A DNA stretch of 64,000 nt, from assembly GCA_050173015.1 (NCBI GenBank), contig JBFXLE010000009.1, positions 98,913 through 162,912 of the forward strand, in the 5' to 3' direction. Source of the stretch: Calditrichaceae bacterium (GTDB lineage Bacteria > Calditrichota > Calditrichia > Calditrichales > JBFXGD01). The notes beneath the pieces were generated by a model. It saw nothing but the letters and a program-made list of their open reading frames with translations. It was not told the origin of the DNA and did not search any database. A program made the translations under genes and the position numbers. This document shows positions 6,787-28,659 of the stretch, piece by piece; position 1 is the stretch's first letter, and each line of letters starts with the position of its first letter.

Positions 6787-6864
6787 CGGGTTACTTATCT
6801 GTTATACGCCGGTATCGACATAAGTATTGTATATAAGTTATAAACCGGAGGTTTGTCTTTTTGA

Positions 6865-7130
6865 AGACTCAGGGGTGGAAAGTATTCTGCCACAAGCATA
6901 GCAAATATTTTAAAAAAATCAGCTCAAAAAGCAGGAATAACAAAAACGATAACGCCGCCTACGCGGCGTTCTTGTTTTGCGACGCGGTTGCTTGCGCAGG
7001 GTAGGGATTTAAGGTATATTCAGGAGTAGTTAGGTCAAAATAGTCCCGGGAAGACTGAACTGCACCCGTTTCGAATAAGTCTATTGATTGAATAAGGAAT
7101 TCTGTTGATGATATTTTTGAAAAGGATTAG
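6865..7130 (+). pseudogene. 3' vestige of a tyrosine recombinase (integrase) gene, reading towards the cassette array
   Basis: The frame starting at 6865 reads ...GGKYSATSIANILKKSAQKAGITKTITPPTRRSCFATRLLAQGRDLRYIQE*LGQNSPGKTELH. After a frame shift it continues PVSNKSID*IRNSVDDIFEKD*. This parallels the box II C-terminus of Xer/integrase proteins (HTLRHSFATHLLE.G.DLRYIQELLGH...TTEIYTHVSNK...). It contains stops, has lost the His/Arg positions, and the catalytic Tyr codon is deleted. About three quarters of the gene is missing upstream. Confidence 0.7.
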
Positions 7131-7220
7131 TTAATTGTAAAAAAAATATATAAACAATGGTTCATACACCGCCAATTTGGGGGGATAAGAACAATGGGAT
7201 ATATACGAACGTTATGGGCA
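6951..7220 (+). repeat. Scaffold repeat copy 1: integrase vestige, hairpin, then GTT core (attI-like junction)
   Basis: About 270 bp that aligns with 11399-11669 and 20268-20540. It starts with the perfect hairpin AACGCCGC-ctac-GCGGCGTT followed by cttgtttt. It ends with the hairpin aatggttc..ccgccaatttgggggg..gaacaat and then GTTATGG at 7211. Confidence 0.85.
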
Positions 7221-7342
7221 AGGCAATGAAAGAAAACGCAATGGGAGTAATATTGTCAGGAAATAGAAAGTTGGAGACTAAAAATAGCTAATATAGATGA
7301 ATGTTTTGAGAAAATAAAAATAGATTCTAAAGAGAAAATATT

Positions 7343-7849
7343 ATGAGTATATACACAGATAAAACATATGTTGCTTTTGATGCTGATAATGATATCCACT
7401 ACTACAGATTGATGCAAGCTTGGAAAAAAAATGATAATTCTTCATTTAACTTTTATGATGCTCACGATTTGAATAATTTGATGTCTTGGTCTTCAGAAGA
7501 AACAATAAAAGCGAGACTTGCTGAAAGAATGAAAAACTCAAAAGTCTTTATTTTACTTGTAGGAAATAACACAAAATTTCTATACAAATTTGTTCGATGG
7601 GAAATTGATCAAGCTTTAAAAAGAGAAAAACCTATTATAGTTGTTAACTTAAATAAAAAGAGAAGCAGGGATACCGAACGATGTCCTGCTATTTTAAATA
7701 GTGAATTAGCGGTTCATATAAGTTTTAATCAAAAGATAATTGAATACGCAATAAATAATTGGCCTAGCTCTGAGGAGTATTACCGTAAGAACAATGAAAA
7801 AGGAGATTATTATTACAAAGATTCTGTTTATAAAGAATTAGGAATATGA
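7343..7849 (+). CDS. thsB: ThsB-like TIR domain protein (DUF1863/MTH538 TIR-like), type II Thoeris
   Basis: 168 aa. KTYVAFDADND...SKVFILLVGNNTKF..FVRWEIDQALKREKPIIVVNL matches the DUF1863 TIR-like pattern, including the conserved WEI glutamate. Its stop overlaps the next start (ATGA). Confidence 0.7.
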   Translation: MSIYTDKTYVAFDADNDIHYYRLMQAWKKNDNSSFNFYDAHDLNNLMSWSSEETIKARLAERMKNSKVFILLVGNNTKFLYKFVRWEIDQALKREKPIIVVNLNKKRSRDTERCPAILNSELAVHISFNQKIIEYAINNWPSSEEYYRKNNEKGDYYYKDSVYKELGI

Positions 7850-8751
7850 AAATGGGTATTTACAGATGGTTGTCGAAATATAAATCTATCCTTACAGATT
7901 TGATGTCTGGTATAGGCCTTTTTTGGCTATTTGTTGAAATAGCAAGTTATTCGACAAATGGACAAATTGACAAATACACGAAAAGCATAGCTTTTTTCTT
8001 AGTAGGGTTTGTATTAATCATTATTATAGTGCTAATAAAAAATAGGCCTAGAACATCTTTTTCCTATAAATTACGAGATAAAGATAATTTCATAGAAGTT
8101 AAAGTAGGTGATGCTTTTGATAATAATGGAGCTTTAATAATTCCATTCAATAATTATCTTGATGTATCTCTCGGTGGTAATGTAAAAAAGGCTAATAGTC
8201 TGCAAAACAAACTTATAAAACAATATTATTTTGATAAAGAAGAACATTTAGTTCAAGATATTTTAAAAAAAACAAATCTAACTGCACCATTTGATATTGG
8301 TACGACTGTAGAAATTGAACAAAAAGGTAAAAGTTTTTTTCTACTAGTTAATTCTCATAAAAAAGAAAATAACCGAGTTGTATCGACAGTTGATGACTTC
8401 TTATTGAGTTTATCGAAGGTTTGGGATTTCATTGCTTTGGAATCCGGAAGAAAAAGTATAGTAACAATTCCAATAATAAGTACAAATCACGGCAGAATAA
8501 CAGACTTAAACAGAATGAATGCGATAAAAGAAATTATTAATAGCTACGTTGAGGCTTCAAAGTTTCTAAATATTGCAGATAAATTGATAATCAGCATTTT
8601 TCCAGACGATATAAATAAAGGAAATATTAAACTTGATGAAGTAGATGAATATTTAAAGTTTCAGTGTAATCATTATAGAAAAGTTCATTTTTCACCTAAA
8701 CTAGAAGGTAAAGAAGTAAGTCCTTCAGTTACAAAGGGTATTAATAATTAA
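7846..8751 (+). CDS. thsA: ThsA-like effector: two N-terminal TM helices plus a Macro-like domain (type II Thoeris)
   Basis: 301 aa. Two hydrophobic helices (GIGLFWLFVEIASY and IAFFLVGFVLIIIIVLI) are followed by IEVKVGDAFDNNGALIIPFNN, which resembles the Macro-domain start (GDIT...AIVNAAN). It is translationally coupled to the TIR gene. Confidence 0.6.
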   Translation: MKMGIYRWLSKYKSILTDLMSGIGLFWLFVEIASYSTNGQIDKYTKSIAFFLVGFVLIIIIVLIKNRPRTSFSYKLRDKDNFIEVKVGDAFDNNGALIIPFNNYLDVSLGGNVKKANSLQNKLIKQYYFDKEEHLVQDILKKTNLTAPFDIGTTVEIEQKGKSFFLLVNSHKKENNRVVSTVDDFLLSLSKVWDFIALESGRKSIVTIPIISTNHGRITDLNRMNAIKEIINSYVEASKFLNIADKLIISIFPDDINKGNIKLDEVDEYLKFQCNHYRKVHFSPKLEGKEVSPSVTKGINN

Positions 8752-8811
8752 TTACAAGAATAATAGGAAATACAATAGGAAATTTTAATTAAGGAAATTA
8801 AGAAGCCCAGC

Positions 8812-8942
8812 CCATAACAATGCATATACTTTATGGCGGGTTCCGTTATGAAAATGAGTATTTTAGTTTCAAATATAAATCAGTGTGGACAGAAAGATTT
8901 GTCTTCCAAAGTCCGCCACAAAGCATATGCTTCCCGTTATGC
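8812..8942 (+). repeat. attC-like site 1
   Basis: The left arm cATAACaatgcatatactttatggcgg pairs with the right arm ccgccacaaagcatatgcttcccGTTATgc. It is an imperfect inverted repeat with a bulge and about 75 bp of variable centre. Confidence 0.65.
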
Positions 8943-8967
8943 ACAAGCTAAAAAAAGAATATAGTTA

Positions 8968-9825
8968 ATGATTATAATAAATGACAAGTCAATAGAGAAA
9001 CTCAGAGACCTGATAAATGAAGAAACTGAATATCGGTCAGGTCCGAAACTCATCGAGTTTTTTAAAGACTTGGGCTTCAATGACTCTTATGGTCAAGGAT
9101 TTCCTTCTCGTTGGAAATATACTGATGATCGCCTTCGCAAAATTAACGGTAAACCAGAATTAGATAAGTGCATCAGAAAATTATTCAATCCAGTTAATTT
9201 CATTGGCAAAACTTCTGAACTTGATAACCACATCAAAAATCTGAATCAATATTTAGCTTTTGATAAATGGCAGGTAGTTCGTAATGGTACAGAAATAACT
9301 TTCAAAAAGAAAGATAAGGTTGAACTGCATGATGATTATGCAGAACTGAAAGCAGATGAATTTTTAGATAAAGAATTTGATGATATTTCAATAGATGCTC
9401 TAGGTCTTGATTCTATAGTTTCAGAAGTTCTCAAAATTCGTTTTGTAGAAATAAAGAATTGTTTTGCAGCAAAAGCACATTTGTCGGTCATTTTTCTTTC
9501 AGGCAGTAGTCTTGAAGGAATCCTACTAGGAATTGCTTTGAAGTCACCTACGGAATTCAACCAAGCTAAATCTGCACCTAAAGACAAGGAAGGCAAAGTC
9601 AAACAATTTCCTGATTGGACTTTGAGCCAACTAATTGACGTTACGTTTGAAGTTGGTCTCATCAAGGATGATGTGAAAAAATTTAGTCATGCTCTTCGAG
9701 ACTTCAGAAACTACATTCACCCATATCAGCAAGTAAGCTCGGGATTTAATCCTGATCACCATACAGCAAAAATTTGCTTTCAAGTATTGAAGGCAGGAGT
9801 ATTTCAACTATCAAAAAACAAATAA
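8968..9825 (+). CDS. Possible HEPN-domain protein (Abi-like RNase candidate) with an uncharacterized N-terminal domain
   Basis: 285 aa. The C-terminal helical region contains SHALRDFRNYIHPYQQ, an R-x6-H arrangement compatible with the HEPN Rx4-6H motif. The N-terminus (EYRSGPKLIEFFKDLGFNDSYGQGFPSRWKYT) is reminiscent of N-terminal domains of Abi/HEPN proteins. No search was run. Confidence 0.4.
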   Translation: MIIINDKSIEKLRDLINEETEYRSGPKLIEFFKDLGFNDSYGQGFPSRWKYTDDRLRKINGKPELDKCIRKLFNPVNFIGKTSELDNHIKNLNQYLAFDKWQVVRNGTEITFKKKDKVELHDDYAELKADEFLDKEFDDISIDALGLDSIVSEVLKIRFVEIKNCFAAKAHLSVIFLSGSSLEGILLGIALKSPTEFNQAKSAPKDKEGKVKQFPDWTLSQLIDVTFEVGLIKDDVKKFSHALRDFRNYIHPYQQVSSGFNPDHHTAKICFQVLKAGVFQLSKNK

Positions 9826-10164
9826 ATGGATACTACACAATTTAAAAACGGCTATTTCATTGAGAGAGTTTATCAACCAATCTCAGAAACTGAATTCAAG
9901 TGTCGACTAATAGTTAAATCAAAGGCGAATAATCAAGAAATTACAGGAATAGAGACTAAAATAAATACCGTTGAGATTGGTCAGGGATTAGCAGACTCAC
10001 AATTTAGCGTTAATCCAATAAGTTGGGAGAGATATTTGAACCAGACAATTACAATGTTATTCAACATGTTGATGCTTCGTCTGAATATTACCGACTTGCA
10101 TAATGTTGACGGAGAAGATAAAATTTCTGAATTCTTTGACGAAAATCCGTTTCACCAAAATTAA
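9826..10164 (+). CDS. Hypothetical protein, partner of the putative HEPN protein
   Basis: 112 aa. Its ATG directly abuts the upstream TAA (TAAATG). It lies in the same cassette, between attC-1 and attC-2. I recognise no motif. Confidence 0.5.
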   Translation: MDTTQFKNGYFIERVYQPISETEFKCRLIVKSKANNQEITGIETKINTVEIGQGLADSQFSVNPISWERYLNQTITMLFNMLMLRLNITDLHNVDGEDKISEFFDENPFHQN

Positions 10165-10174
10165 AAAAGCCAGT

Positions 10175-10305
10175 GCCTAACATCGGCTATAGCAAATGCG
10201 GGCTAAAGTGCTATAATGAAAGTAATTACACATAATAAACCAACTGCTAGTCGGACAAGTAAGTACCTTGAAACCCCGCACTTTCCATAGCCATGACCGT
10301 TAGCT
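10175..10305 (+). repeat. attC-like site 2
   Basis: GCCTAACatcggctatagcaaatgcgggc pairs with ccccgcactttccatagccatgaccGTTAGCt. GCCTAAC/GTTAGC is the textbook inverse-core/core pair. Confidence 0.7.
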
Positions 10306-10345
10306 GCAAGGTTAAGAGCGATACTGCAAAATTGAAAATTAAGAA

Positions 10346-11230
10346 ATGATTTTAGACTATTTAAATAAAACATTTAATAACAGAGAAATCGTATTGATTT
10401 CCTATTTGACAATTTTCATTATATGGACACTTACACAGAAAAATATTAGACAGTCCATAGTGTCTGTGATTAAAGCATTTATGGCATGGAAGATACTTGT
10501 TTCAATATTTGTGTTGTTACTATATATTGCATTGATTGCTTTTGGATTATTTAAAATTGGACTTTGGGATAAATCCATGATTAAAGATACTGTTTATTGG
10601 ACTTTTGGGGTCGGATTCATTATTATGATGAATTTTGACAAAGCATTGAAGGAAGAACACTATTTTAAGAACCTTGTCAAAGAAAATTTTAAAGTCCTTA
10701 TAATCATTGAATTTATAGTTGGAATTTATGTTTTTGGTATCATCACTGAATTTATTTTAATGCCATTTGTGATTCTATTTTCAATGTTATTAGGATACAC
10801 TGAAGTTTATAAAGAGCATGGACAAGTTCGCAAATTTTTAAATGGAATCTTTGGCATCATAGGTACGATTTATTTAATTTATTCCGGTTATCATATTTAC
10901 TCTGATTTTACTGGATTTGCAACTCTGGGGAATCTTAAAACATTTTTATTCCCTTTAATAATGTTTGTTCTATTTTTACCATTTGCATATTCCTTTGCAC
11001 TATTGGCTCATTACGAGAGCTTATTCGTTCGATTAGGTTTTTTCCTTAAAGACAAAAAATTGAGAAGATTCGCTAAGTGGAGAATATTATTGTCAGTAAA
11101 TTTTAGCATTTTAAGATTAAAACGAATAACACCTGGAATGTTATTTAGTGACTGTTCTACTAGAGAAGATATAAAAAATGAGATAAAAAATAAAATAAAC
11201 CCAGCAGCTAACACACAATATAGCCAATAA
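10346..11230 (+). CDS. Polytopic membrane protein, unknown function (single-gene cassette)
   Basis: 294 aa with about 7-8 hydrophobic segments (for example IVLISYLTIFIIWTL, ILVSIFVLLLYIALIAFGLF, FILMPFVILFSMLLGY). Its last codons overlap the inverse core of attC-3. Confidence 0.55.
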   Translation: MILDYLNKTFNNREIVLISYLTIFIIWTLTQKNIRQSIVSVIKAFMAWKILVSIFVLLLYIALIAFGLFKIGLWDKSMIKDTVYWTFGVGFIIMMNFDKALKEEHYFKNLVKENFKVLIIIEFIVGIYVFGIITEFILMPFVILFSMLLGYTEVYKEHGQVRKFLNGIFGIIGTIYLIYSGYHIYSDFTGFATLGNLKTFLFPLIMFVLFLPFAYSFALLAHYESLFVRLGFFLKDKKLRRFAKWRILLSVNFSILRLKRITPGMLFSDCSTREDIKNEIKNKINPAANTQYSQ

Positions 11231-11340
11231 GGGTTTCAGTGGTATGCAAAGGGTTGTAGTGTAGCCCGCTCCAACTTTTCGTGTAACTTGATAGGAAATC
11301 ACCCGCAATCCCTTACTGGCCATATTGTCAAGCGTTAGCT
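11207..11340 (+). repeat. attC-like site 3 (subtype Y)
   Basis: GCTAACacacaatatagccaataaggg pairs with cccttactggccatattgtcaagcGTTAGCt. It shares the gcaatcccttac right arm and the gtaacttgata centre with the sites at 20082 and 28024. Confidence 0.7.
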
Positions 11341-11669
11341 CCAAGGCTAAAAAATAGAAACAAAAAGAATAAAATATTTGCCAAAAGGATGAAAATAGAA
11401 CGCCGCCTATGCGGCGTTATTGTTTTGCGACGCGGTTGCTTGCGCAGGGTACGGATTTAAGATATATTCAGGAGTAGTTATGTCATATTAGTCCCGGGAC
11501 GACTGAACTGCACACGTCTCAAATAAGTCAATTGATTGAATAAGGAATTCTGTTGATGATATTTTTGAAAGGGATTAGTTAATCGTAAAAAAAATATATA
11601 AACAATTGTTCATATACCGCTGATTTGGGTGGATAAGAACAATAACATATACACGCACGTTAGGTTGCA
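11341..11669 (+). repeat. Scaffold repeat copy 2: leader, integrase vestige, hairpin, GTT core
   Basis: Starts immediately after the attC-3 core. It translates as TPPMRRYCFATRLLAQGTDLRYIQE*. It carries the hairpin AACGCCGC-ctat-GCGGCGTT followed by attgtttt, and ends GTTAGGT at 11659, 25 bp before the next ATG. Confidence 0.85.
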
Positions 11670-11683
11670 TTAAAAAAGAAACC

Positions 11684-12268
11684 ATGAAACTATATCACAG
11701 ATACAACATAAAGAGAAAACAAGAACATTTATTTTTGGAGTTTATCTTGAATAATATTCCAGGAATAAATTATTTAAAAGAGAATTATCGTCTTACAGAA
11801 AATGAATATGATTCATCAATTGAGATAAAACCCATAATTGATTCATTAAAAAATGACACTTGGTTACCAAAAAAGCGTAAACAAAATTGCATTGACATTT
11901 TACAGGACATTAAACTTAATCATGACAAGGTCGTAGTATTTGAATCGGTTAATAAAATATCATTTGATTTCACTATTAAAATAGATAGTGACTTGTTTTT
12001 CTTTGAATTACACGAAGACCAACACAAGAAGTTAAAAGTAAATAGACAGTCAAAAATATTTGATATCCAAGGAAATGAAATTTTTGTTCCTCGTTATTTA
12101 CAAAGATTATTAAAGGATATTTGGCGCTGGGAGAATCTTGACAACTACAAGATAATTTGGGCTGACTGGTTTATTTCATCATCAAATAAACTTTCTAACT
12201 TGTTGGAAAAAGGAAAAATCGAATACGGAATAGATAATACATTTCAATTTAAAAACTTAGGAATATGA
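11684..12268 (+). CDS. Hypothetical protein, possibly a DUF559/Vsr-like (PD-(D/E)xK-fold) endonuclease
   Basis: 194 aa. SFDFTIKIDSDLFFFELHEDQHKK followed by RYLQRLLKDIWRWENL loosely resembles the DF...(hydrophobic)E.DG..H...D..R..L pattern of DUF559. This is weak, by-eye evidence only. Confidence 0.3.
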   Translation: MKLYHRYNIKRKQEHLFLEFILNNIPGINYLKENYRLTENEYDSSIEIKPIIDSLKNDTWLPKKRKQNCIDILQDIKLNHDKVVVFESVNKISFDFTIKIDSDLFFFELHEDQHKKLKVNRQSKIFDIQGNEIFVPRYLQRLLKDIWRWENLDNYKIIWADWFISSSNKLSNLLEKGKIEYGIDNTFQFKNLGI

Positions 12269-12717
12269 ATATTGAAGAATTGGAACAAAAGATTGCGAAA
12301 CTTAGAAACGAAATAAAAAAGGATACTCTAGAACTTGAGAATGTTCCCGAAAGATTTATTTCAGTAATCAAAGGAGAACTGAAAACAAAAGAAGGTAGAT
12401 TAATTGATTTGGAGTTAAAACTGGATGATTTAATTGAAAATGGAATTACTGATAGGCTGCAAAAGCCAATTGATGAATTACAAGAGAAAATTAAATCGTT
12501 TATTCTTGATTATCAATTTCAATATCCACAGGACAAAGAAATGTTTATCTATCAAATTGCATTTGAAGAAAATGATGATGAACTCTTGATAAGCTTAAAA
12601 CCAAAGGAAAAAACCACAAATCGATTGAACAAATACAACAAGGATTTACTAAAAGTTACAATAGAGAACAAAGTAATACAAGAACCAAAAGCTACTGACC
12701 TTTTATTAAGACTTTAA
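12265..12717 (+). CDS. Hypothetical coiled-coil protein
   Basis: 150 aa. ATGA start/stop overlap with the upstream ORF. The N-terminal 80 aa are heptad-like and charged (EELEQKIAKLRNEIKKDTLELEN...). No motif recognised. Confidence 0.5.
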   Translation: MNIEELEQKIAKLRNEIKKDTLELENVPERFISVIKGELKTKEGRLIDLELKLDDLIENGITDRLQKPIDELQEKIKSFILDYQFQYPQDKEMFIYQIAFEENDDELLISLKPKEKTTNRLNKYNKDLLKVTIENKVIQEPKATDLLLRL

Positions 12718-12792
12718 AGCACTTTTCAATTAAAAAAGTTAAATCACTTGACCTTGTATTCTTAGGAGTTCCCTTAATCGCTGAATATAGCC

Positions 12793-12932
12793 ATGACAAA
12801 TATCAATAGAAACAAATATCAAACAACCTTTTCGTTTTGACTCAGATTTCCAAAGATAAAAAGAAAGAAATTCTTGAATATATTGCAGAAAAATTCAATC
12901 AGAGTATAAAAATCGAATTTGTGAAGAAATAA
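12793..12932 (+). pseudogene. Possible frameshifted small ORF at the end of the cassette
   Basis: ATG at 12793 gives MTNINRNKYQTTFSF then a stop. The -1 frame continues LTQISKDKKKEILEYIAEKFNQSIKIEFVKK*. That stop (12930-12932) lies inside the inverse core of attC-4, mirroring the overlap of the 3' end of ORF 10346-11230 with the inverse core of attC-3. Confidence 0.25.
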
Positions 12933-13074
12933 CGCAACCTAGCACGCAATAAAAAACATAGGGCAGAAAGTGCAAAAATTGAACGACATAACATTTAATA
13001 AACGACTTGGTAACTTGACAGGGAAGTGCTTCGAAATGCCAAACGTTTCATATACGTAACCGATAGCGTTCATT
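12928..13074 (+). repeat. attC-like site 4 (subtype X)
   Basis: AATAACgcaacctagcacgcaataaaaaacatagggca pairs imperfectly with tgccaaacgtttcatatacgtaaccgatagcGTTcATT. It shares aataacgc and gaaatgccaaacg with the site at 21575. The core is weaker than in the other sites. Confidence 0.5.
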
Positions 13075-13149
13075 GTAAGGAGACAAAACAACCGTCAGAA
13101 TAATTATGGTATTTTTGCTGCATGAAGAAAAAAGAAAATATGGAAATAG

Positions 13150-13227
13150 CCACCGCACAAATGGCATATTTGGTTTTTGCCGACGCACAGCCAAACGCTG
13201 AAAAAACCAAAAGAGCCATTTCTTGCC
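13150..13227 (+). repeat. IR-B1: structured inverted repeat of about 75 bp forming the 5' leader of hsdR
   Basis: The arms aaatggcatatttggttttt and aaaaaccaaaagagccattt are 17/20 complementary around a spacer of about 23 nt (gccgacgcacagccaaacgctg). It is homologous to 21722-21795 through to the start codon. Confidence 0.75.
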
Positions 13228-13251
13228 ATCTCACGACTGAAAGATAATGAT

Positions 13252-16098
13252 ATGACAACATATAAAAATCAAAATCCTGAACAAATAGCCAGAGACAAAA
13301 TTGACAAAATGTTAATTGAAGCTGGTTGGATTGTTCAATCTAAAAATGAAGTTGACTTGGGTGCAGGCAGAGGTGTTGCGTTGAGAGAATACCAAACGGA
13401 AACAAAATTTGCGGATTATGTGCTGTTTGTTGACAAAAACCCTGTTGGAATTATTGAGGCAAAAAAAGAAGACGAAGGACATAAACTAACCGTAGCGGAA
13501 GACCAAGCCTCTGAATATGCCAAAGCAAAACTAAAATATTTGGATAACGACCCATTGCCTTTTGTTTTTGAGAGTACCGGAACAATAACCCGTTTTAGAG
13601 ATACACGAGACCCAAAACCAAGAGGGCGACATATTTTTTGGTTTTACCGTCCCGAAACATTGGCGGAATGGCTACAAAAAGATAAAAGTTTAAGAGGTAG
13701 ATTATTAGATATTCCGCAATTAAATGAGACTGGGCTTCGCCCTGCTCAAATTAAGGCGATTAATAACCTTGAACAATCTTTTAAAAAGAACAAGCCAAAA
13801 GCTTTAATACAAATGGCTACCGGAGCAGGTAAAACTTTTACTGCCTGTACTTTTGTGTATCGCTTATTGGAACACGCCAAAGCCAAACGGATTTTATTTT
13901 TGGTTGACACCAAAAACTTAGGAGAACAAGCAGAACAGGAGTTTATGGCTTTTCAGCCCAACGACAGCAATCGCAAATTCACAGAATTGTATAATGTACA
14001 GCGTCTTACTTCAAGCTACATAGCAAGCGATAGTCAGGTTTGTATCTCTACCATTCAACGGATGTATGCCATTTTAAAAGGTGAAGAACTAGACGAAGGA
14101 GCCGAAGATACAAACCCGAACGAATCGACCTGGATGGAACAACAGCGAAATAAAAAACAGGCAATGCCTGTGGAATATTCTGCCAAAGTACCCATTGAAC
14201 AATTCGATTTTATTGTAATTGATGAATGCCACCGCTCTATTTACAATCTTTGGAAACAAGTGTTGGATTATTTCGATGCTTTCCTTATCGGCTTAACTGC
14301 CACACCCGATAAGCGAACTTTTGGCTTTTTTGAGGAAAATGTAGTGAGCGAATATACCTATGAAGAATCTGTGTTGGATGGTGTAAATGTTCCTTACGAT
14401 GTGTACAATATTGAAACTGAAATTTCGCAAAAAGGCAGTGTGATAAAAGCAGGTTGGTTTGTGGACAGACGAGATAAGCTCACCCGAAAAACGCGTTGGC
14501 AACAAGAAGATGAAGACACCGAATATTTGAAAAACGATTTGGATAAAAAGGTCGTTAATCCAAGCCAGATACGGAATATTATTCGCCAATACAAAAAAGC
14601 ATTGGAAACCGAAATTTTCCCGAACAGAAAAGACGAAAATGGAGAATACGAAGTTCCTAAAACACTGGTTTTTGCAAAAACTGACAGCCACGCGGATGAT
14701 ATAATCAAAATCATTCGTAAAGAATTTGACGAAGGCGATGATTTCTGCAAAAAACTGACTTATAAAATAAAAGAAGACCCAAAATCGGTGTTAAACCGTT
14801 TTCGGAATTCATATCATCCCCGCATTGCGGTTACGGTAGATATGATTGCAACGGGAACCGATGTAAAACCTTTGGAAGTGTTGTTGTTTATGCGTGATGT
14901 TAAAAGCACCAACTACTTTGAACAAATGAAGGGTAGAGGAACACGCACCATTAACAAAGATGCTTTTCAGGCAAACAACACCAATGTAAAAGGGGCTTGC
15001 AAAACCCATTTTATTATTGTGGATGCAGTTGGCGTAACAAAGTCGAAGAAAACCGACAGCCGGCCTTTGGAACGCAAACCAACTGTAGCCTTAAAAGATT
15101 TATTGGGAGCGGTAACAATGGGAGTTACCGAAGAAGATTTGTTTCTTTCGCTTGCAAATCGTTTGATACGATTAGAAAAAGAAATTACCGACAAGGAAAA
15201 AGATAAATTACTGGAACATTCCAAAGGCAAAAATCTGAAACAAATCAGCAAAGAATTATTATCGGCTTTTGATAAAGATGAAATTGAAAACAGAGCACAG
15301 GAAAAAATTGAAAAATTCTGTAAAGACGCCCTACAGGGCGTCTCTTCTGCTGCCGATTTATCTCCGGCACAAATAGAATCTTTCCGACAGGACGCACAGA
15401 AAGAATTGATTAATACCGCCGCTTCTACTTTTAACGGAAAGCTGAACGATTATATTGAAAAAGTGCGTATGGAACACGAGCAAATTATCGACAGCCACAA
15501 TATCGACACCGTAACAAAATCGGAATGGGACACCGCTTCGGTGGATAAAGCCAAAGAAACTGTAAAAGATTTTAACGAATACCTCGAAGCCAATCAGGAC
15601 GAGATAAAAGCATTGACCATTTTTTACAAACAACCCTACAACCGCCGAAACATTACCTTTAAAATGATTAAAGATGTGTTTGATAAACTGAAATTGGATA
15701 AACCCACCCTTGCCCCCGATTATGTTTGGGCGGCATACAGCCAATTGGAAGAGGTAAAAAGCAAACAACCGATTGACGAACTCACCGCGTTAATTTCGTT
15801 AATTCGCAGGGCTTGCGGAATTGACAGCGAGTTGAAAGCTTTTGATTCCACCATTGACGAAAATTTCAAAAACTGGATTTTCAAACAAAACGCAGGCAAG
15901 CACAACCGCTTTACAACCGAACAAATGGACTGGCTGCGAGAACTGAAAAATCACGTAGTAAATTCGTATCACATAGAAATTGAAGACCTCGATTATACAC
16001 CCTTTGATGAAAAAGGAGGACGTGGCAAAATGTACCAACTCTTTGGTGCCGAAATGAACGATATTATTAATGAACTTAACGAGGTATTAGCAGCATAA
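13252..16098 (+). CDS. hsdR: Type I restriction enzyme R subunit (HsdR), with an EcoEI-type C-terminal domain
   Basis: The N-terminus KIDKMLIEAGWIV...ADYVLFVD..PVGIIEAKKE is the HsdR_N nuclease fold. It also has helicase motif I (MATGAGKTFT), DECH (IVIDECHRS) and TATP, plus a C-terminal tail like EcoEI_R_C. I prefer the ATG at 13252 over the track start at 13177, which lies inside IR-B1. Confidence 0.85.
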   Translation: MTTYKNQNPEQIARDKIDKMLIEAGWIVQSKNEVDLGAGRGVALREYQTETKFADYVLFVDKNPVGIIEAKKEDEGHKLTVAEDQASEYAKAKLKYLDNDPLPFVFESTGTITRFRDTRDPKPRGRHIFWFYRPETLAEWLQKDKSLRGRLLDIPQLNETGLRPAQIKAINNLEQSFKKNKPKALIQMATGAGKTFTACTFVYRLLEHAKAKRILFLVDTKNLGEQAEQEFMAFQPNDSNRKFTELYNVQRLTSSYIASDSQVCISTIQRMYAILKGEELDEGAEDTNPNESTWMEQQRNKKQAMPVEYSAKVPIEQFDFIVIDECHRSIYNLWKQVLDYFDAFLIGLTATPDKRTFGFFEENVVSEYTYEESVLDGVNVPYDVYNIETEISQKGSVIKAGWFVDRRDKLTRKTRWQQEDEDTEYLKNDLDKKVVNPSQIRNIIRQYKKALETEIFPNRKDENGEYEVPKTLVFAKTDSHADDIIKIIRKEFDEGDDFCKKLTYKIKEDPKSVLNRFRNSYHPRIAVTVDMIATGTDVKPLEVLLFMRDVKSTNYFEQMKGRGTRTINKDAFQANNTNVKGACKTHFIIVDAVGVTKSKKTDSRPLERKPTVALKDLLGAVTMGVTEEDLFLSLANRLIRLEKEITDKEKDKLLEHSKGKNLKQISKELLSAFDKDEIENRAQEKIEKFCKDALQGVSSAADLSPAQIESFRQDAQKELINTAASTFNGKLNDYIEKVRMEHEQIIDSHNIDTVTKSEWDTASVDKAKETVKDFNEYLEANQDEIKALTIFYKQPYNRRNITFKMIKDVFDKLKLDKPTLAPDYVWAAYSQLEEVKSKQPIDELTALISLIRRACGIDSELKAFDSTIDENFKNWIFKQNAGKHNRFTTEQMDWLRELKNHVVNSYHIEIEDLDYTPFDEKGGRGKMYQLFGAEMNDIINELNEVLAA

Positions 16099-21825: not shown

Positions 21826-24800
21826 ATGAATGAAGAAATAGTATCAGCAAGTGGAGAAAGAGCAGCAATGGGAGGCTATTTGCCTCAATTTGATGAGTTC
21901 GCTTGGTTTGTCTATTTGAATCTAATAAATAAAAAGCTTGAATGGATACGAATAGCAGACTCCAAGGCTGAAAAACTAGATGATATACAGTATTCTACTC
22001 ATTCAGAAATTCATGCATACCAAGTAAAATGGACTATCGCTGATGCAAATATATCATTTGCAAATTTTACGGATTTGTTTCCTCTTATCACCTCTAGTTG
22101 GAAGAGTTTAAAAACAGCTAATCCTAGCAAAAAAATAATTCCTCATTTAATCACTAACAAACCTATTTCCTCCCACGACAGCTTAAAGGTAGGCGATACA
22201 AAAATCGGTTCATTTCAAGACTTCGTCTCAGAAGTTTGGGTAAAGCTAAAATCAAATCAATCAATTGATGATAAGTGGAAACAAGTTCTTGAGGAACTCA
22301 AAAAGAGTTCAAAACTCAATGATTCTGAATTTGGAGAATTTATCATCTCTTTTGATTTTCAACCAGACTATAAACAAAAACAGTTTAGTATAGGAAATAT
22401 TAAATACTCTAAAGAAGACGAAGACCTTCAACAGATCAGTCGATATATAGTACAAAAAGTTGCTAGCCCGAAAAGAGTCGTTGAATTTACTCGCCAAGAA
22501 ATTATTAAAGAATTAGGTTGGTCTGATAGATTTAAAACAATTTTTAATCACGAGTTAATAGTCGATAGACAAAGATACCAGCCGATTCAATCGACAATTG
22601 ACCTGTTAAATTCAAAGTTAGAGGAGCATAAAAATGGATACCTGTTTTTGCTAGGTGGCCCAGGTTCTGGAAAATCTACCTTATTGAATCAATGGTCAAA
22701 AGGCCTTAAAACACGAATAATACGATACTACGCCTTTGATTTCGTTAATCCATCTTCACACTTAAACTTTTATGAAAGAGGAAATGCTACCCATCTTTTT
22801 TTCGATTTAGTTTTTCAATTAAAGGAAGCTGGAATATATAAAAGAGACATTCTTCCATATAAAGACTTACTTTTTCTAAAAGATGTATTCAATGAGCAAT
22901 TAAGTGCAATTGGAGAGGACTTTGTGACAAATGGTCAATCGACCATAATATTGATTGATGGTCTAGATCATGTTCCTAGGGAATACAAATCAACAACTAA
23001 TAGTTTCCTACGAGAACTTCCTTTACCATCTTCTCTCCCAAACGGGGTCTTCATCATTTTAGGTAGTCAATCTTATGAACTTGAAGACATTCAACAGGAA
23101 ATTAAAACTGAATTTCAGAAAGGAAATAGAACCATTCAAATTGATCCACTTAAAAAGGAGGAAGTATACAAGTACATTGATAATCTTGATACTTCAATTC
23201 AACTTAATGGTTCTCAAAAGCTGCAAATATTTGAGAAATCAGAAGGACACCCGTTATACCTGTCATACTTAATTGAAAAAATCAATAACGCAGATTCTAT
23301 TAACGATACAATCGAATCTTTTGAAGTTATTGATGGTAGTATTGATAATTATTACAAAAAAATATGGGAGCCTATCCAGAAAGAAGATAGCCAAATTCAA
23401 TTCTTAGGTTTAATTGCGAGAATTAATGGTTTGATCAAACTTCAGTTCATTCAGGAATGGGACTTCCAACCGAGTGTTTTAAAGTCCTTTCGTGAAAAGG
23501 CCAGATTTCTGTTTAATGAAACCGAAAAAACTTTGTCTTTCTTTCATAATTCGTTCAAGCAATTCCTTCTTCATCATACCTCTTTAAATTACTTAACAGA
23601 TGAGTTTGATCCGACAATTAACGTCAATTATCATAGTCAACTTACTGATTATTATGTAAAATCAGAGATTGAAAAATCCTGGAAACAGAATCATCACCTA
23701 TTTCAGGCTAAACAATATGATAAGTTTATTTCAGAAGTTACCCCAAATAGTATTACTGAACAGTTACTTAACTTCAGACCAGCAGAAGAAATTAAGCAGG
23801 ATGCAAAATTGGGAGTTGAAATAGCAAGACAGAATAAGGACATTAATACTCTGGTAAGATATCTGTTTTCATTAGCAGAAATTGAAAGAAGATTATTCAA
23901 TATTGATCCCACATCCTTTATAGAAGAACTTTTGTACCTAAATAAATACGACTTAGCAAGGGATTATCTAAGAACTGGCAACACCCTCCATTGTAGCGAA
24001 TCGTACGCATTTAAAGCATGTCGATTGTTTATTGAATCTGGGCACAAATCAGAAGGAGCAACTTTATACAATTTGGCTTATCCAGAAATCATTACAGATT
24101 CCGGGATACATATTGATGATTCTCACAGATATGAAGAAATAAGAGATTCTTTAGAAGAATGGATTTATACTTCTCCCTATTTTGAAGCAACCGAGAATAT
24201 TTTCTCAATAATTGAGAAAATTCAATTCTCAGGTAGCATACGGAAAAACAGGTTTGAAGAAGAAGAATCTGATTTACTTTTAAGGTTACTCTCTAATCTT
24301 GGTTATAGTTTAGTGGATCAAAACAAGTGGGATGATTTTAATAAAGTCATAGAAAAAATAGATTCGAGGTCTTCAAGAGGAAGGAATTCTCTTTTCCAAC
24401 TTATAAAGTACGCTATCGAGCAATGCCTTGACTTAAAAGATAGTAGTCGAGTGAATGAATATCTGTCATTTTTAACCACTCATTTCACAAAAGAGAAGAC
24501 AAAATCCATTGGCAAAATATTCATTGCAGATTTAGTCTATAAAGTCACTAGAGACCTAAATGAAACATATAGTTGGATTAAGGAAGTTGAGCAACCATCT
24601 AATGTGGGTAAAGACCAGCTAGGATATGATGATTCGTTAGACGCCTTTCTTCCATTAATCAAACTTAACAAGTTACTTAACCTATGTGGAAAAGGAGTTT
24701 CGATTACGTCTGCAATTCCATCTGTTGCGAAAGGTACTGATGAAGAAGTTTTAGTGGAGTTTGAACGAATGTTATGTATTACCACTCAAATTCTAGCCGA

Positions 24801-27800
24801 GGGCATTCTTCAAACACCAATGCCAGGTGATCCTATTAAAAGAGTATTTCCAATTGTTCGGTTTTATTACAAAGAAATATCCCACCGAAACAGCTATTGG
24901 TATAAGCTGACACAAGCAAAAGGCCAATATTATGATTTTTTGATTTCGGCGGTGTCTGAATTGGGTACTGAAAAATTAGAATTATTAGGAGATTATTTGT
25001 TCAGTGAGTTTAAGAATATTCCAAAATATTGGAGTACAAGTGTCCAGCGGAAAATCATTAAATCCCTCTTGAATAAAGGGTTTAATGCTAAAAAAGCAGT
25101 AATAAAGTTGAGATCCATAGAGGATTCCATGTTGGAAGGTCACGATATAGATGGCCGTATAACCGAATGCTTGGCCCACTCAAAAGTATGGTTCATTTTA
25201 GGCAAGCTAGATGAAGGTGAAATATGGCTCAAACAGGCTATTCAAGAATCTATTGGAGTAGGATATAGAAAAGATTATCAATTTAGTACATGGATTGAAT
25301 GGTTAAGAAAAATAAACCATAAAGACCCATCAAAAGCTACTGAAAGAATAAAGTGGTTCTTATCTCATTTAAAACATATTAAAGAAACCACGGAGGGAAG
25401 GGCTTATTGGAATGCTTCTGAAGAATTATTAGAAGTCGCATATGAACACAATCTGGAAGATGGCTTAGAGCAGGCTATTTGGCAATTAAAGAACGATCTA
25501 ATAGACTTTAAAGATTCAATTGCTCTTTTCATAAAATATTTTATGATAAAAACAAAAAGTAAAGAAGAGTTCAAAAGTATTGTTCAACTATATAGTGATT
25601 TATATCTGCTTCTTGCTGAATCTGCCAATTCTTCCCTGCTCAAATCTATCTTAGAAAAAGGGCATGAAATTTTAAAAGAAGATTTTTTAGTAGAACATGC
25701 TCAAGCCATTATTTCGGCAATAGAAATTAAAGCTTACGAAGAAACCAGACATTACTTACTATCTGAAATTGATAACTTCTATACATCAAAAGGGCTAAAA
25801 GCAGAAGACTATTATTCACGGTTTAATATACCGGCAAAAAGCGAAAGAAATAGTTCATCAACATCTTCTAACACATTGACTTTAAAGACAGATCATGAAA
25901 AGATTGATGAAAGTGAAGTACTAAAACGAGTTACAAATTTTGAAGATTTCAAAAAAATCATTCAAGAAGAAGATCAGGCAAATTCATTTTTTAATTGGTC
26001 AAAGGTTATAGATAAAATAGCTCCATTATTGTCTTCAAGTCAAATTGAAGAAATCACCAAACTGGCTAGAATAGGAAGGAGAGAGTCAGATTTCTATGCT
26101 AAATTAAGTGAGGCTGCCTTGGAGCTAGAAAACACAGAACTCGCAACTAGTTTAGCCAATAAAAGTATTGAGTTATCGAGCGAATCGGGGTGGGTAAAAT
26201 ATTATGATGGAGGAACAAGAATCAATGCATTTAATGCACTAAAACGAATCAATCCTGCAATATCATCTAATAAGGCATTTGAAGTATTTGCTCATGATAT
26301 AGTAACCAGTAATTATCCAAGTTCATATATCGAACATCTTGAAGACATCGTTCCACTTTTAACAGAAAATTATGTTGAGGAAGAGCTTTGGCATGAAATA
26401 TATGGTTACCTGCAAAGACTGATGTCGAATAGTAAACCGGTTGAGGATTTACCTGTTCTTCCATCATTAAATCGTCCAATCATAGAAACCTTAGTCGATT
26501 ATATGGTGTATTTATCACAGAGTCCCGTCTCAATAATAAAGGAGCAATCTTTACAGCTATTGGCAAAATATATAAATCAAGATAATGACTATGCTTTGAC
26601 TCAATTACTGAATGGACGTTTAGATGATTACTCAAGTATGAACGTGATGATGAAATTAACTGCGTTCAACTCCCCCAAAGTCCATTTGCTTAAATCAAAG
26701 ATCAATAGTTTAGCTATATCAAATGACTATCAATTAAGAGAAAGCTCAAAACAAATACTTTCCTCAATTCAAGAAGAAATTCCAACTCCCAAAAACATCG
26801 AATTATCTAAAGTATACTCTTTCCATATTCCAGAAACTGAAAAACCAGATTTTAGAAAAGAGATTGACCCTTATTTCCCAGAAGTTGATACTAATGACCC
26901 CCGTGATCTGATACGACCATTTGAATTTTTAATCAAAATCTTATCTGAGGAGTCTGGGATTAATGAATCTAACCTTATATATAGAGCCTACTCGATCATG
27001 AAAGAAATTGGTCGAGAGGAGGAATGGTCCGTTGAGTATGAAAAAAAGCTTAGAAATCATTTAGAAGAAATTTACCTAAGATACTCTTACCCTAGACCAA
27101 GGGTAATTGCGGCTCGAAGAGCCATAATGCATGTCACCAATGAATTAATAGATTCTGGAACAATTGATGATGAGCGAATTCAGAAACCTTTTATATCACA
27201 TGATTATGCGGTTCTGTTTTTTAATGAAATAGCAAAACCTGAATTCATTCAAACTATTAAAGAGAGAGATTTTGGAGGAGTTGGCAATGATTGGTTAGAT
27301 CGAATAGGTGAATCAGAAAGATTAAACGAATCAATATTAGACTATAATGATAACTTCAAGATTATTGCAGAATATAATCAAGTTAAAAATTTAGATTGGG
27401 GTTCTCCTACTGAAGAATACATGTACCAAATTGCGGTTAATGAGGAGTTGGATGAAGAAGATAATTACATTTTTGGCTCTGTTTTTCACCAATTAAGCAG
27501 TAACTATCATGATTTGAGAAGTGGTGGACATTTTATTGTTGTAGTCAGGGATCATAGATTTGACCAATTTGATCTGAAATCTAAGTGGATTGCAATTAAC
27601 CCTGTTTTGGCTAGATACTTAGGATGGGAGCCTGAAACAACCAAATTATTTGCTTGGAAAAACTCGCAAGGTGAATTGATGGCGGAATCAATTTATTGGT
27701 CAAATGGAAATATTAACATGACACCTCGTAAGGATGGAGAAGTCGGGGAAGGGTGGTTTGTTATTGTTTCCAAAGATGGATTAGAGAAGATAAAATCTAT

Positions 27801-27897
27801 CGAGAAGAAATTGTTTCTGCAAAAGAAATTAACAAGATCTAAATTTGAAGATTCAGTTCTAATGAATAATCAAGCAATTAGTGTGACAAAAATTTGA
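21826..27897 (+). CDS. Giant STAND-type P-loop NTPase with an N-terminal Cap4/DUF4297-like PD-(D/E)xK nuclease and a long helical-repeat C-terminus (Avs-like antiviral ATPase candidate)
   Basis: The N-terminus SGERAAMGGYLPQFDEFAW...AEKLDDIQYS..EIHAYQVKW matches the DUF4297 pattern (GG..GF.YQ ... E..DD ... QVK). Walker A is FLLGGPGSGKSTLLNQW and Walker B is TIILIDGLDHV, followed by about 1500 aa of helical sequence. I prefer the ATG at 21826 over the TTG at 21796. Confidence 0.65.
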   Translation: MNEEIVSASGERAAMGGYLPQFDEFAWFVYLNLINKKLEWIRIADSKAEKLDDIQYSTHSEIHAYQVKWTIADANISFANFTDLFPLITSSWKSLKTANPSKKIIPHLITNKPISSHDSLKVGDTKIGSFQDFVSEVWVKLKSNQSIDDKWKQVLEELKKSSKLNDSEFGEFIISFDFQPDYKQKQFSIGNIKYSKEDEDLQQISRYIVQKVASPKRVVEFTRQEIIKELGWSDRFKTIFNHELIVDRQRYQPIQSTIDLLNSKLEEHKNGYLFLLGGPGSGKSTLLNQWSKGLKTRIIRYYAFDFVNPSSHLNFYERGNATHLFFDLVFQLKEAGIYKRDILPYKDLLFLKDVFNEQLSAIGEDFVTNGQSTIILIDGLDHVPREYKSTTNSFLRELPLPSSLPNGVFIILGSQSYELEDIQQEIKTEFQKGNRTIQIDPLKKEEVYKYIDNLDTSIQLNGSQKLQIFEKSEGHPLYLSYLIEKINNADSINDTIESFEVIDGSIDNYYKKIWEPIQKEDSQIQFLGLIARINGLIKLQFIQEWDFQPSVLKSFREKARFLFNETEKTLSFFHNSFKQFLLHHTSLNYLTDEFDPTINVNYHSQLTDYYVKSEIEKSWKQNHHLFQAKQYDKFISEVTPNSITEQLLNFRPAEEIKQDAKLGVEIARQNKDINTLVRYLFSLAEIERRLFNIDPTSFIEELLYLNKYDLARDYLRTGNTLHCSESYAFKACRLFIESGHKSEGATLYNLAYPEIITDSGIHIDDSHRYEEIRDSLEEWIYTSPYFEATENIFSIIEKIQFSGSIRKNRFEEEESDLLLRLLSNLGYSLVDQNKWDDFNKVIEKIDSRSSRGRNSLFQLIKYAIEQCLDLKDSSRVNEYLSFLTTHFTKEKTKSIGKIFIADLVYKVTRDLNETYSWIKEVEQPSNVGKDQLGYDDSLDAFLPLIKLNKLLNLCGKGVSITSAIPSVAKGTDEEVLVEFERMLCITTQILAEGILQTPMPGDPIKRVFPIVRFYYKEISHRNSYWYKLTQAKGQYYDFLISAVSELGTEKLELLGDYLFSEFKNIPKYWSTSVQRKIIKSLLNKGFNAKKAVIKLRSIEDSMLEGHDIDGRITECLAHSKVWFILGKLDEGEIWLKQAIQESIGVGYRKDYQFSTWIEWLRKINHKDPSKATERIKWFLSHLKHIKETTEGRAYWNASEELLEVAYEHNLEDGLEQAIWQLKNDLIDFKDSIALFIKYFMIKTKSKEEFKSIVQLYSDLYLLLAESANSSLLKSILEKGHEILKEDFLVEHAQAIISAIEIKAYEETRHYLLSEIDNFYTSKGLKAEDYYSRFNIPAKSERNSSSTSSNTLTLKTDHEKIDESEVLKRVTNFEDFKKIIQEEDQANSFFNWSKVIDKIAPLLSSSQIEEITKLARIGRRESDFYAKLSEAALELENTELATSLANKSIELSSESGWVKYYDGGTRINAFNALKRINPAISSNKAFEVFAHDIVTSNYPSSYIEHLEDIVPLLTENYVEEELWHEIYGYLQRLMSNSKPVEDLPVLPSLNRPIIETLVDYMVYLSQSPVSIIKEQSLQLLAKYINQDNDYALTQLLNGRLDDYSSMNVMMKLTAFNSPKVHLLKSKINSLAISNDYQLRESSKQILSSIQEEIPTPKNIELSKVYSFHIPETEKPDFRKEIDPYFPEVDTNDPRDLIRPFEFLIKILSEESGINESNLIYRAYSIMKEIGREEEWSVEYEKKLRNHLEEIYLRYSYPRPRVIAARRAIMHVTNELIDSGTIDDERIQKPFISHDYAVLFFNEIAKPEFIQTIKERDFGGVGNDWLDRIGESERLNESILDYNDNFKIIAEYNQVKNLDWGSPTEEYMYQIAVNEELDEEDNYIFGSVFHQLSSNYHDLRSGGHFIVVVRDHRFDQFDLKSKWIAINPVLARYLGWEPETTKLFAWKNSQGELMAESIYWSNGNINMTPRKDGEVGEGWFVIVSKDGLEKIKSIEKKLFLQKKLTRSKFEDSVLMNNQAISVTKI

Positions 27898-27904
27898 CCA
27901 TGAA

Positions 27905-27990
27905 TCCAAACGCTCGCATCCATACACATTGGCAAATCGCACAGGACAGCCACACCAGCCAAAATTTGCCAAAGAGTATGGCTGCACCAA
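27905..27990 (+). repeat. IR-B4: structured inverted repeat immediately downstream of the STAND gene
   Basis: The arms catacacattggcaaat and atttgccaaagagtatg form the repeat. Relative to IR-B2, both arms changed together (tttgcaatt/aattgcaaa became ttggcaaat/atttgccaa). Confidence 0.75.
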
Positions 27991-28023
27991 CGCCGCCAGA
28001 AAAGAAAATGAAAAAGCACGGGC

Positions 28024-28145
28024 ATACAACAATGTGTATAATTCATAAGGGTTTCAGCGGATTGCAAGCCGTATCACCCGCATCAAATTCGGGTGGTAAC
28101 TTGATAAGTAAAAAGTTCGCAATCCCTTACGAATCATAGTTAGCT
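28024..28145 (+). repeat. attC-like site 7 (subtype Y), last in the array
   Basis: catACAACaatgtgtataattcataaggg pairs with cccttacgaatcataGTTAGCt. The centre (gggtttcagcgg...ggtaacttgataag) is homologous to attC-3. Confidence 0.6.
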
Positions 28146-28285
28146 CCAAGGCTAAAAAATAGAAACAAAAAGAATAAAATGTTTGCCAAAAGAATAGAAA
28201 TAAAAGCCACCGCACAGTAAGCACATTTGCAATTCGCGCGAGCCGGCGCGAAAACCAAAAATTGCAAAAGATTGCAATCTTGCCG
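28146..28285 (+). repeat. Terminal scaffold leader plus IR-B5 (no cargo)
   Basis: ccaaggctaaaaaatagaaacaaaaagaataaaatgtttgccaaaag matches the leader of scaffold copies 2 and 3. It is followed not by the integrase vestige but by gccaccgcaca..cacatttgcaattcgcgcgagccggcgcgaaaaccaaaaattgcaaaag..cttgcc. That sequence combines the left edge of IR-B1/B3 with the body of IR-B2. Confidence 0.7.
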
Positions 28286-28659
28286 GCGCGTGACTGAATA
28301 CGAATAGAAAACTATATAATTTGGAATTGAACTAATGAAATTATCACCCGCGCGATTAGAGAACTTGATCCCGGAATTTATCGGATATCTTATCCGTTAA
28401 GTATAAATAATATCGAAATTATAACTGTACGACATAACACTTTTATCAGAAACAGATCCTAAAAAATAAATCAAAGGCGATACAACAACACAATCAAGGT
28501 AACAAAAAAGCGGTTACTGTAGATTGTCTCCCTATTATTACACACCGTGGTAGATCATCAGAAACCCGACAAGCGCCGGACGCCGGTTTTTTGCGCCAAA
28601 ACGTGGAGGTGATACCTTATGCAAAAAACGATTTTAAAAAATAGTACAGGATTTAAACT

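Follow-up and report, generated by a model that had tools for sequence, protein, structure and literature searches.

The 64-kb stretch of contig JBFXLE010000009.1 analysed here, called the window, comes from a Calditrichaceae genome and contains an accessory island of about 24 kb, from position 6787 to about 30555, that is an insertion relative to the closest relative. We read this island as an array of cassettes from an integron-like system that has degenerated and become immobile, arranged as three head-to-tail sub-arrays, and assign this reading a probability of about 0.7. Each sub-array would be made up of a module, which combines the 3' end of a dead tyrosine recombinase gene with an attI-like site, and of the cassettes that follow it, each ending in a structured site of about 127 nt. 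A preliminary description had interpreted the region as an integron-type array of defence cassettes without a working integrase. This interpretation is partly supported: the function was right (cassette array, dead integrase, defence cargo), but the family detail was wrong. As judged from sequence, two features of canonical integrons are absent, namely the IntI-specific insertion of the integrase and the extrahelical bases of the sites.

The limits of the insertion were obtained from the closest genome, a Calditrichaceae metagenome-assembled genome (MAG) contig (L001). Its M49 peptidase is 92% identical to that of the window (gene at 5065-6786), and 145 bp past the M49 gene there follows, on the minus strand, a homologue (91%) of window 30556-32418, so that the whole island is absent. 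The preliminary description had pointed to the M49/vWA junction for comparison with relatives and had ended the island at 28560; the comparison moves the end to about 30555 and includes the vWA gene (28660-30057). GC content was 0.29-0.38 across 7.0-28.5 kb and 0.416 in both flanks. All 14 long open reading frames (ORFs) between the M49 and vWA genes lie on the plus strand, as described.

Seven inverted repeats are present in the island at the coordinates given earlier:

8812-8942, minus strand (the bottom strand folds), attC-type site 1, covariance model score 118.7 bits
10175-10305, minus strand, attC-type site 2, 130.2 bits
11207-11340, minus strand, attC-type site 3, 120.5 bits
12938-13068, minus strand, attC-type site 4, 112.2 bits, both cores mutated
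20082-20209, minus strand, attC-type site 5, 112.4 bits
21575-21704, minus strand, attC-type site 6, 125.3 bits
28024-28145, minus strand, attC-type site 7, 101 bits

Single-strand folding gave a more stable fold for the bottom strand than for the top strand in six of the seven sites. The RNAalifold consensus of the seven aligned bottom strands contains 24 pairs, 13 of them with compensatory changes. A covariance model was built from these seven sites (our own model, not that of IntegronFinder). On the 64 kb it returned exactly those seven, at 101-130 bits and on a single strand; the opposite strand reached at most 22 bits and everything else at most 12 bits. The 1.37 Mb of syntenic DNA covered in 80 relatives gave a single weak match, which led to the Melioribacteraceae locus L032 described below. 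Rfam, which holds no attC family, returned only tRNA from the window at the gathering threshold. The repeats are real, polar and local.

The outer-end cores proposed earlier hold in part. AAC/GTT fits in six window sites, site 4 being the exception, and is conserved together with one purine; the full RYYYAAC/GTTRRRY is only partly matched. The cores AATAAC and GTTcATT assigned to site 4 were wrong. Own-end complementarity, described below, places the real ones at the degenerate pair CCTAGC (12938-12943) and GATAGC (13062-13067), and with both cores mutated the site is probably inactive. The decayed ORF thought to stop within the AATAAC core is not upheld, because the cores lie elsewhere; the ORF at 10346-11230 does terminate within site 3, as had been noted. 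The arms do not pair with small bulges: a 6-bp box is separated by an asymmetric internal loop from a stem of 18 bp that is continuous. The possibility that sites 3, 5 and 7 are copies of one site was weak, as they share 66-69% identity against 55-67% for other pairs.

To recognise units that had once been circles, we used the rule that the first bases of a cassette after G↓TT (the arrow marks the crossover) must read as the reverse complement of those that precede ...AAC at its own far end. In all seven units, the first 11 nt past GTT matched the own far end at 7-10 positions (mean 8.6), against a mean of 3.4 for non-own pairs. The true assignment was the only one of 5040 permutations to reach the observed sum. 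The scar is also found in the 7.1-kb type I restriction-modification (R-M) unit and in the 6.4-kb NACHT unit, and the cassettes directly behind the three modules match at 9 (cassette 1), 10 (cassette 4) and 10 (cassette 6) of 11 positions. The units of the window are discrete mobile cassettes with boundaries at G↓TT. Together with the uniform polarity, the scars support the co-oriented array of discrete cassettes proposed in the preliminary description.

What that description overlooked is a decayed C-terminus of a tyrosine recombinase, present in three plus-strand copies (6865-7092, 11373-11540 and 20242-20400) within three modules of about 330 bp:

6787-7131, plus strand, first part of module 1 (whole module 6787-7211), decayed C-terminal part, about 100 codons, of a tyrosine recombinase, ending in ...DDIFEKD and a stop codon
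6951-6970, plus strand, terminator-like hairpin AACGCCGCCTACGCGGCGTT with a T tract, formed from the former codons ITPHxLRHSFATH
7132-7211, plus strand, attI-like site 1, two direct repeats of about 17 bp and crossover ...ACGAAC G↓TT at 7211
11335-11659, plus strand, module 2, 66-bp flank, dead integrase core with hairpin, and attI-like site 2 (crossover G at 11659)
20204-20530, plus strand, module 3, 66-bp flank, dead integrase core and attI-like site 3 (crossover G at 20530)
28140-28205, plus strand, 66-bp flank, with which modules 2 and 3 also start

The remnant in module 1 has in-frame stops, and the catalytic H, H and Y are replaced. The modules share 86-91% identity over a 265-bp core, and all three remnants share one stop codon and have lost the catalytic His and Tyr in the same way. 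Since the lesions are common to all copies, decay preceded triplication. No intact recombinase occurs within the 64-kb window, which bears out the earlier statement that a working integrase is lacking. Every module ends in ...ACGAAC G↓TT, and the next cassette bears the scar of its own site. The fact that the following cassette carries its own-site scar identifies the module ends as attI-like insertion points. Modules 2 and 3 start at the G↓TT of the preceding site with the 66-bp stretch. The same stretch follows site 7 with the core absent, and is likely the right-hand end of the array platform.

The hairpin of module 1 has copies at 11399-11418 (from the scan) and at about 20268-20287 (from the module alignment only). 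It is a perfect, GC-rich 8-bp hairpin with a T tract that scored as a terminator on both strands, and the pseudogene may have been exapted to insulate the sub-arrays from one another. A cassette promoter in each module was unsupported, as the sigma-70 scan of the modules was empty.

The recombinase lineage was then recovered from databases. The raw 76-aa remnant retrieved only four metagenomic fragments (P0001-P0004, 68-75% identical), and a consensus probe built from these was used instead. It matched more than 7500 recombinase clusters. The best 120 listed are 77-93% identical to the probe, those of full length among them have 274-284 aa, and their named sources are Deferribacteraceae, Desulfuromonas, Ignavibacteria, Cloacimonadota and Desulfothermus. 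The hosts of the lineage are Calditrichota, Ignavibacteriota, Deferribacterota, Desulfobacterota and Cloacimonadota. Intact members scored 204-223 bits against the integron-integrase model TIGR02249, below its cutoff of 265 and in two stretches, and passed NCBIfam NF040815 at 227-245 bits (cutoff 220). The best match of solved structure was Pyrococcus abyssi XerA (4A8E) with an E-value of 3e-45 over one full-length stretch. VchIntIA (2A3V) aligned in two stretches, and its residues 206-244, the IntI-specific insertion, have no counterpart in the recombinases of about 280 aa. An alignment with a provisional IntI1 sequence showed the same gap.

Downstream of the intact gene, a co-oriented array of the same site family was present in all four long contexts (L205, which is 85717-106553 of the complete Deferribacteraceae chromosome CP063375.1, L206, L212 and L213). 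The attI-like sites are conserved, lie 58-91 nt past the recombinase stop codon and carry cassette scars; in the intact-gene contexts the crossover is 74-91 nt past the stop codon with an exact scar of 9-10 nt. The cassette scar at attI was likewise found in L205, L206, L212 and L170, and by eye in L101, L134 and L032. The attI sequence, with its two direct repeats of about 17 bp, is conserved across loci, and by eye it is near-identical between window module 3 and L204. In L204 the attI lies downstream of an intact integrase, and attI-like site 1 of the window matches it too; the window layout is repeated in L170 and L101. Different cargo stands behind the same attI in L032, L201 and L204-L206. 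Many contigs with an intact recombinase (L204, L207-L211) stop about 200 bp past its stop codon, just beyond attI, as one would expect of a first cassette that is variable in the sampled populations. In L204, an ORF-less perfect hairpin GTTGAGCCGTCAT...ATGACGGCTCAAC lies directly after attI at 10923-10960 and is followed by a GC-rich site of a different type.

The sites also belong to a wider family. A 22-base degenerate pattern derived from the window sites matched at least 120 metagenome contigs, in which the covariance model found 249 sites; statistics were calculated on the 139 best. In these, 96% of cells pair (72% when shuffled), 17 of the 24 pairs show both-sided changes, and the covariation score was 0.578 against 0.136 for shuffled and at most 0.11 for slid partners. 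All 40 loci with two or more sites showed uniform polarity, and the ORF abutting a site was co-oriented with it in 110 of 117 cases. Arrays of this family carry different cargo in many phyla. On the bottom strand, a spacer that measures 4-5 nt on the 5' side and 2 nt on the 3' side separates the 6-bp box from the continuous 18-bp stem. The length is 118-192 nt (median 127), and the centre varies, as had been described for the window. AAC/GTT occurs in 134-136 of the 139 sites with a purine at position 4, and the full RYYYAAC/GTTRRRY is again partly matched. No extrahelical bases were found in the 139 sites, the insert columns of the stem being occupied in at most three. Two G·T wobbles are conserved in 43 and 50 of 51 sites, a subset not preselected by the search pattern. 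Thus the attC geometry proposed in the preliminary description stands as to AAC/GTT cores, hairpin, unpaired spacer and variable centre, but not as to extrahelical bases.

By analogy with integrons, the recombinase would act at G↓TT on a pair of folded bottom-strand hairpins to release a cassette as a circle, and would then insert the circle at attI, 58-91 nt past its own stop codon. The recombinase family, of about 280 aa, is intermediate between IntI and XerA; its members have no IntI-specific insertion, and their genes are transcribed towards the cassettes. That these short recombinases catalyse the cassette reactions is suggested by their association with the arrays. The same association suggests that the G·T wobbles stand in for extrahelical bases: the strand choice may be encoded by the two wobbles, which become C·A mismatches on the top strand, together with the asymmetric spacer. 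In the window, the recombinase decayed first and the module was triplicated later. With all three recombinases dead and the cores of site 4 mutated, the array is frozen, unless a trans-acting copy exists elsewhere in the genome. On whether there is, beyond this island, a second and very widespread integron lineage, we are evenly divided. Such a lineage would comprise the more than 7500 recombinase clusters and occur in the five host phyla named above and in others. It would have a recombinase of about 280 aa that lost or never acquired the insertion, attC sites without extrahelical bases, a wobble-based strand choice and an integrase directed, in most cases, towards the cassettes, and its complete elements would be scored as CALINs (attC clusters that have no integron-integrase). 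The window would then be a dead, triplicated example in which full-size defence systems have accumulated.

Several points weigh against our interpretation of the island and of the lineage. The sigma-70 scan found no promoter in the modules. The empty site is known from one 5.3-kb MAG contig, L001; searches for the exact M49 protein returned no record, and those for the exact ThsB protein of cassette 1 only a 4-kb contig of the same population. Orientation is not uniform, as L134 has a short recombinase in the classical divergent position. Related recombinases are paired with IS91 transposases inside arrays. The IntI insertion is held necessary for folded-site recombination (Messier and Roy 2001, as cited in PMC9668308). 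Canonical IntI integrons are known in Ignavibacteriae and Chlorobi (PMC9024848), and a canonical IntI acting in trans is possible.

The occurrence of canonical integrons in these groups also bears on the alternative that the island is an ordinary CALIN, built by a canonical IntI that was later lost, with the short remnants as unrelated passengers, for example of IS91 type. We consider this unlikely. The AAC/GTT cores, hairpins and co-oriented cassettes fit integrons, and related short recombinases do lie beside IS91 transposases in three loci (L136, L150 and L165). However, conserved attI-like sites, with scars that confirm their crossover at each of three window positions, have the remnants directly upstream, and the same arrangement of recombinase and attI occurs in L205, L206, L212 and L170 beside intact or cut genes. 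A tblastn search with IntI1 of about 612 kb of array-rich loci (L081-L200) and the window found short recombinases only, the window has no IS91 transposase, and extrahelical bases, to which the IntI insertion binds, are absent from the sites.

The three loci just named were observed as follows. L136 (1237-3335), L150 (1-1926) and L165 (4234-6353) contain a related short tyrosine recombinase together with an IS91-family transposase (NF033538, 430 bits), in either orientation and within arrays of the same site family, and these recombinases are 33-45% identical to the array-associated ones. In L212 (10963-17969), a three-cassette block encoding a 301-aa protein, a 128-aa protein and an S41 peptidase is tandemly duplicated behind the recombinase gene, with identical site scores.

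Both observations would suit a second alternative, to which we give a slim chance: that a unit with the hairpin and the 66-bp flank as its boundaries multiplied by a replicative route, rolling-circle (IS91-type) or other, to give the sub-arrays, and not by recombinase-mediated or homologous duplication. The identical left junctions of modules 2 and 3 and the 66-bp flank after site 7 with the core absent could be explained in this way. But no IS91-type HUH transposase is present in the window, the ORF resembling a REP-associated tyrosine transposase (RAYT) lies inside the R-M cassette and off its boundaries, and plain unequal crossing-over between repeated attC and flank sequences gives the same pattern. 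That the repeats are instead terminators or elements of the repetitive extragenic palindromic (REP) or miniature inverted-repeat transposable element (MITE) kind, placed between operons of a conventional defence island, is largely refuted and very improbable: they are hairpins between convergently terminated operons and a RAYT-like gene lies at 17789-18400, but the own-end complementarity extends 7-10 nt past the core and is unit-specific, the polarity is strict, attI junctions exist, arrays with different cargo occur in many phyla, and, unlike REPs, no further copies occur in the 64-kb window and one weak match in 1.37 Mb of relatives.

In the cassette array as we read it, the cargo is distributed as follows:

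7212-8936, plus strand, cassette 1, type II Thoeris, with ThsB TIR at 7343-7849 and ThsA at 7846-8751 (two transmembrane helices and a Macro domain)
8937-10299, plus strand, cassette 2, 285-aa HEPN-like protein at 8968-9825 and 112-aa partner at 9826-10164
10300-11334, plus strand, cassette 3, 294-aa protein at 10346-11230, multi-pass membrane by eye
11660-13062, plus strand, cassette 4, two ORFs without annotation at 11684-12268 and 12265-12717
13063-20203, plus strand, cassette 5 (7.1 kb), type I R-M, with hsdR at 13177-16098, hsdS at 16098-17636, a RAYT-like gene at 17789-18400 and hsdM at 18416-19936
20531-21698, plus strand, cassette 6, 195-aa soluble protein at 20573-21160 and 139-aa protein at 21150-21569, membrane by eye
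21699-28139, plus strand, cassette 7 (6.4 kb), 2033-aa NACHT/STAND NTPase at 21796-27897, with an Avs1b-like NTPase module
28206-30555, plus strand, tail of the insertion, vWA protein at 28660-30057 and 140-aa membrane ORF at 30057-30479, without an attC in the covariance model scan

The defence assignments made earlier from the sequence were confirmed with Pfam and PADLOC profiles. The Thoeris system is of type II: ThsB matched PF08937 (2e-21) and PDLC00429 (1e-73), and ThsA matched PF20016 (8e-28) and PDLC00414 (2e-39), its two N-terminal hydrophobic helices being read by eye. The R-M system is of type I, with HsdR, HsdS and HsdM together in the order R-S-(RAYT-like)-M. The 203-aa ORF in the hsdS-hsdM gap (17789-18400) resembles REP-associated tyrosine (Y1/HUH) transposases, with 59.9 bits to NF047646, below the cutoff of 80, and a weak match to Pfam Y1_Tnp. 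The STAND protein has a NACHT match of 2.7e-06 and an Avs1b match of 2.4e-39 over residues 269-597 of 2033 only. Avs proteins are defined by a STAND NTPase, an N-terminal effector and a C-terminal sensor of phage proteins; here only the NTPase module matched, and the protein is Avs-like by that module.

The possible HEPN protein of the preliminary description was assessed for a four-helix HEPN fold with an Rx4-6H motif and is retained as HEPN-like. The stretch LRDFRNYIHPY is invariant in 24 homologues. The predicted fold (pLDDT 84.6) has HEPN proteins as closest solved folds (1UFB, probability 0.99, target TM 0.65), every E-value being above 0.3 and none significant. There were weak PADLOC matches to the AbiJ/Stk2 N-terminus, and one UniRef name reads HEPN. 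The family has more than 4700 clusters, the best 120 listed being 65-95% identical. Members come from Bacteroidota, Calditrichia, Cloacimonadota, Zixibacteria, Marinimicrobia, Gracilibacteria, an Eubacteriales MAG and a Helarchaeota MAG. The sequence identities point to a very recent and wide horizontal spread.

Cassettes 3, 4 and 6 had no matches in Pfam, NCBIfam and PADLOC. Judged by the predicted products, with type II Thoeris, the HEPN-like protein, type I R-M, the Avs-like NTPase and these three cassettes without annotation, the island serves as a defence island. It is a reasonable guess that the unannotated cassettes are defence systems as well. When the window cassette proteins were searched by tblastn against 750 kb of array loci, only distant R-M relatives appeared, and the same cassettes were not found there. 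In L213 (10884-20849), the array behind an intact short recombinase encodes a type I R-M system that is complete, along with a NERD-domain protein, which indicates that large R-M cassettes recur in the lineage.

The vWA protein and the 140-aa membrane ORF of the tail are absent from the closest relative too, have no attC-type site of their own and are preceded by a non-coding stretch of 450 bp. In the Melioribacteraceae chromosome OZ245062.1 (L032, 14589-17082), a solo attI-like module is followed by one cassette with a weak site and has no recombinase. The cassette is a type II R-M system of a C5 methylase and a SacI-like endonuclease, and the module, like the island of the window, has an M49 peptidase gene in its neighbourhood, from which it is 3 kb downstream.

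In the current dogma, the IntI insertion and the extrahelical bases that it binds enable recombination of folded sites. A lineage without both, if true, would make this dogma directly testable and would provide a minimal pair of recombinase and site for synthetic cassette shuffling. It would also account for some of the excess of CALINs, so far unexplained, that is seen outside Proteobacteria. Tools in current use require the IntI domain. Defence systems in integron cassettes have been published and described as streamlined for small cassettes (bioRxiv 10.1101/2024.07.02.601686, 10.1101/2024.07.02.601719). The 6-7 kb cassettes with a complete type I R-M system and a 2033-aa STAND protein show that the small-size constraint is not general. 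For defence screens, concrete candidates are cassettes 3, 4 and 6 and the widespread 285-aa HEPN-like family.

IntI is commonly defined through its insertion. In the integron-like subgroup of Smyshlyaev et al. the insertion was not fully conserved (PMC8138268), and cassette-directed integrases are known from Treponema (PMC4909258). A domain-less, reverse-oriented integron lineage was not described in the literature searched, the coverage of which was incomplete.

The array resembles sedentary chromosomal integrons and CALINs of the Vibrio type in its co-oriented cassettes, the structured terminal site with AAC...GTT, the G↓TT recombination point, the bottom-strand folding bias, the variable centre, the attI beside a recombinase gene, the cassette stop codons within the site and the defence cargo (as in bioRxiv 10.1101/2024.07.02.601686). 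It differs from them in a recombinase lineage without the IntI-specific insertion of about 39 residues, in sites without extrahelical bases and with a spacer of 4-5 against 2 nt, in two cassettes of 6.4 and 7.1 kb where published defence cassettes are streamlined, and in three attI modules within one array. IntegronFinder reserves the CALIN label for at least two attC sites, found with its own model, that have no intI closer than 4 kb; with seven sites in our model and no intact recombinase in 64 kb, the island would receive this label. Treponema denticola has a similar layout: in its reverse integron (Coleman et al. 2004, cited in PMC4909258 and PMC4889954), the integrase gene is co-directional with the cassettes and attI lies downstream of its 3' end. 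However, the T. denticola IntI is detected by IntegronFinder, which needs a match to the IntI-specific profile (PMC4889954), whereas the family of about 280 aa lacks the insertion and its hosts are the five phyla named above.

Archaeal XerA/Xer proteins (PDB 4A8E, 5HXY) are the best match of solved structure, with the same length and domain set, and the NF040815 model is passed. Xer proteins resolve chromosome dimers at dif. The recombinases described here, in contrast, are accessory, 77-93% identical across phyla among the best 120 listed, and stand at the head of cassette arrays. There is also a similarity to those IS91-family elements that have an accessory tyrosine recombinase, in that 33-45% identical recombinases stand beside IS91 transposases (L136, L150 and L165), but the window has no such transposase, and the array-heading recombinase gene is followed by attI and not by a transposase. 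Like defence islands, the region clusters Thoeris, R-M, STAND and HEPN genes in an AT-rich accessory segment that is absent from a close relative; unlike in them, the mechanism of clustering is visible here as site-specific insertion, cassette by cassette.

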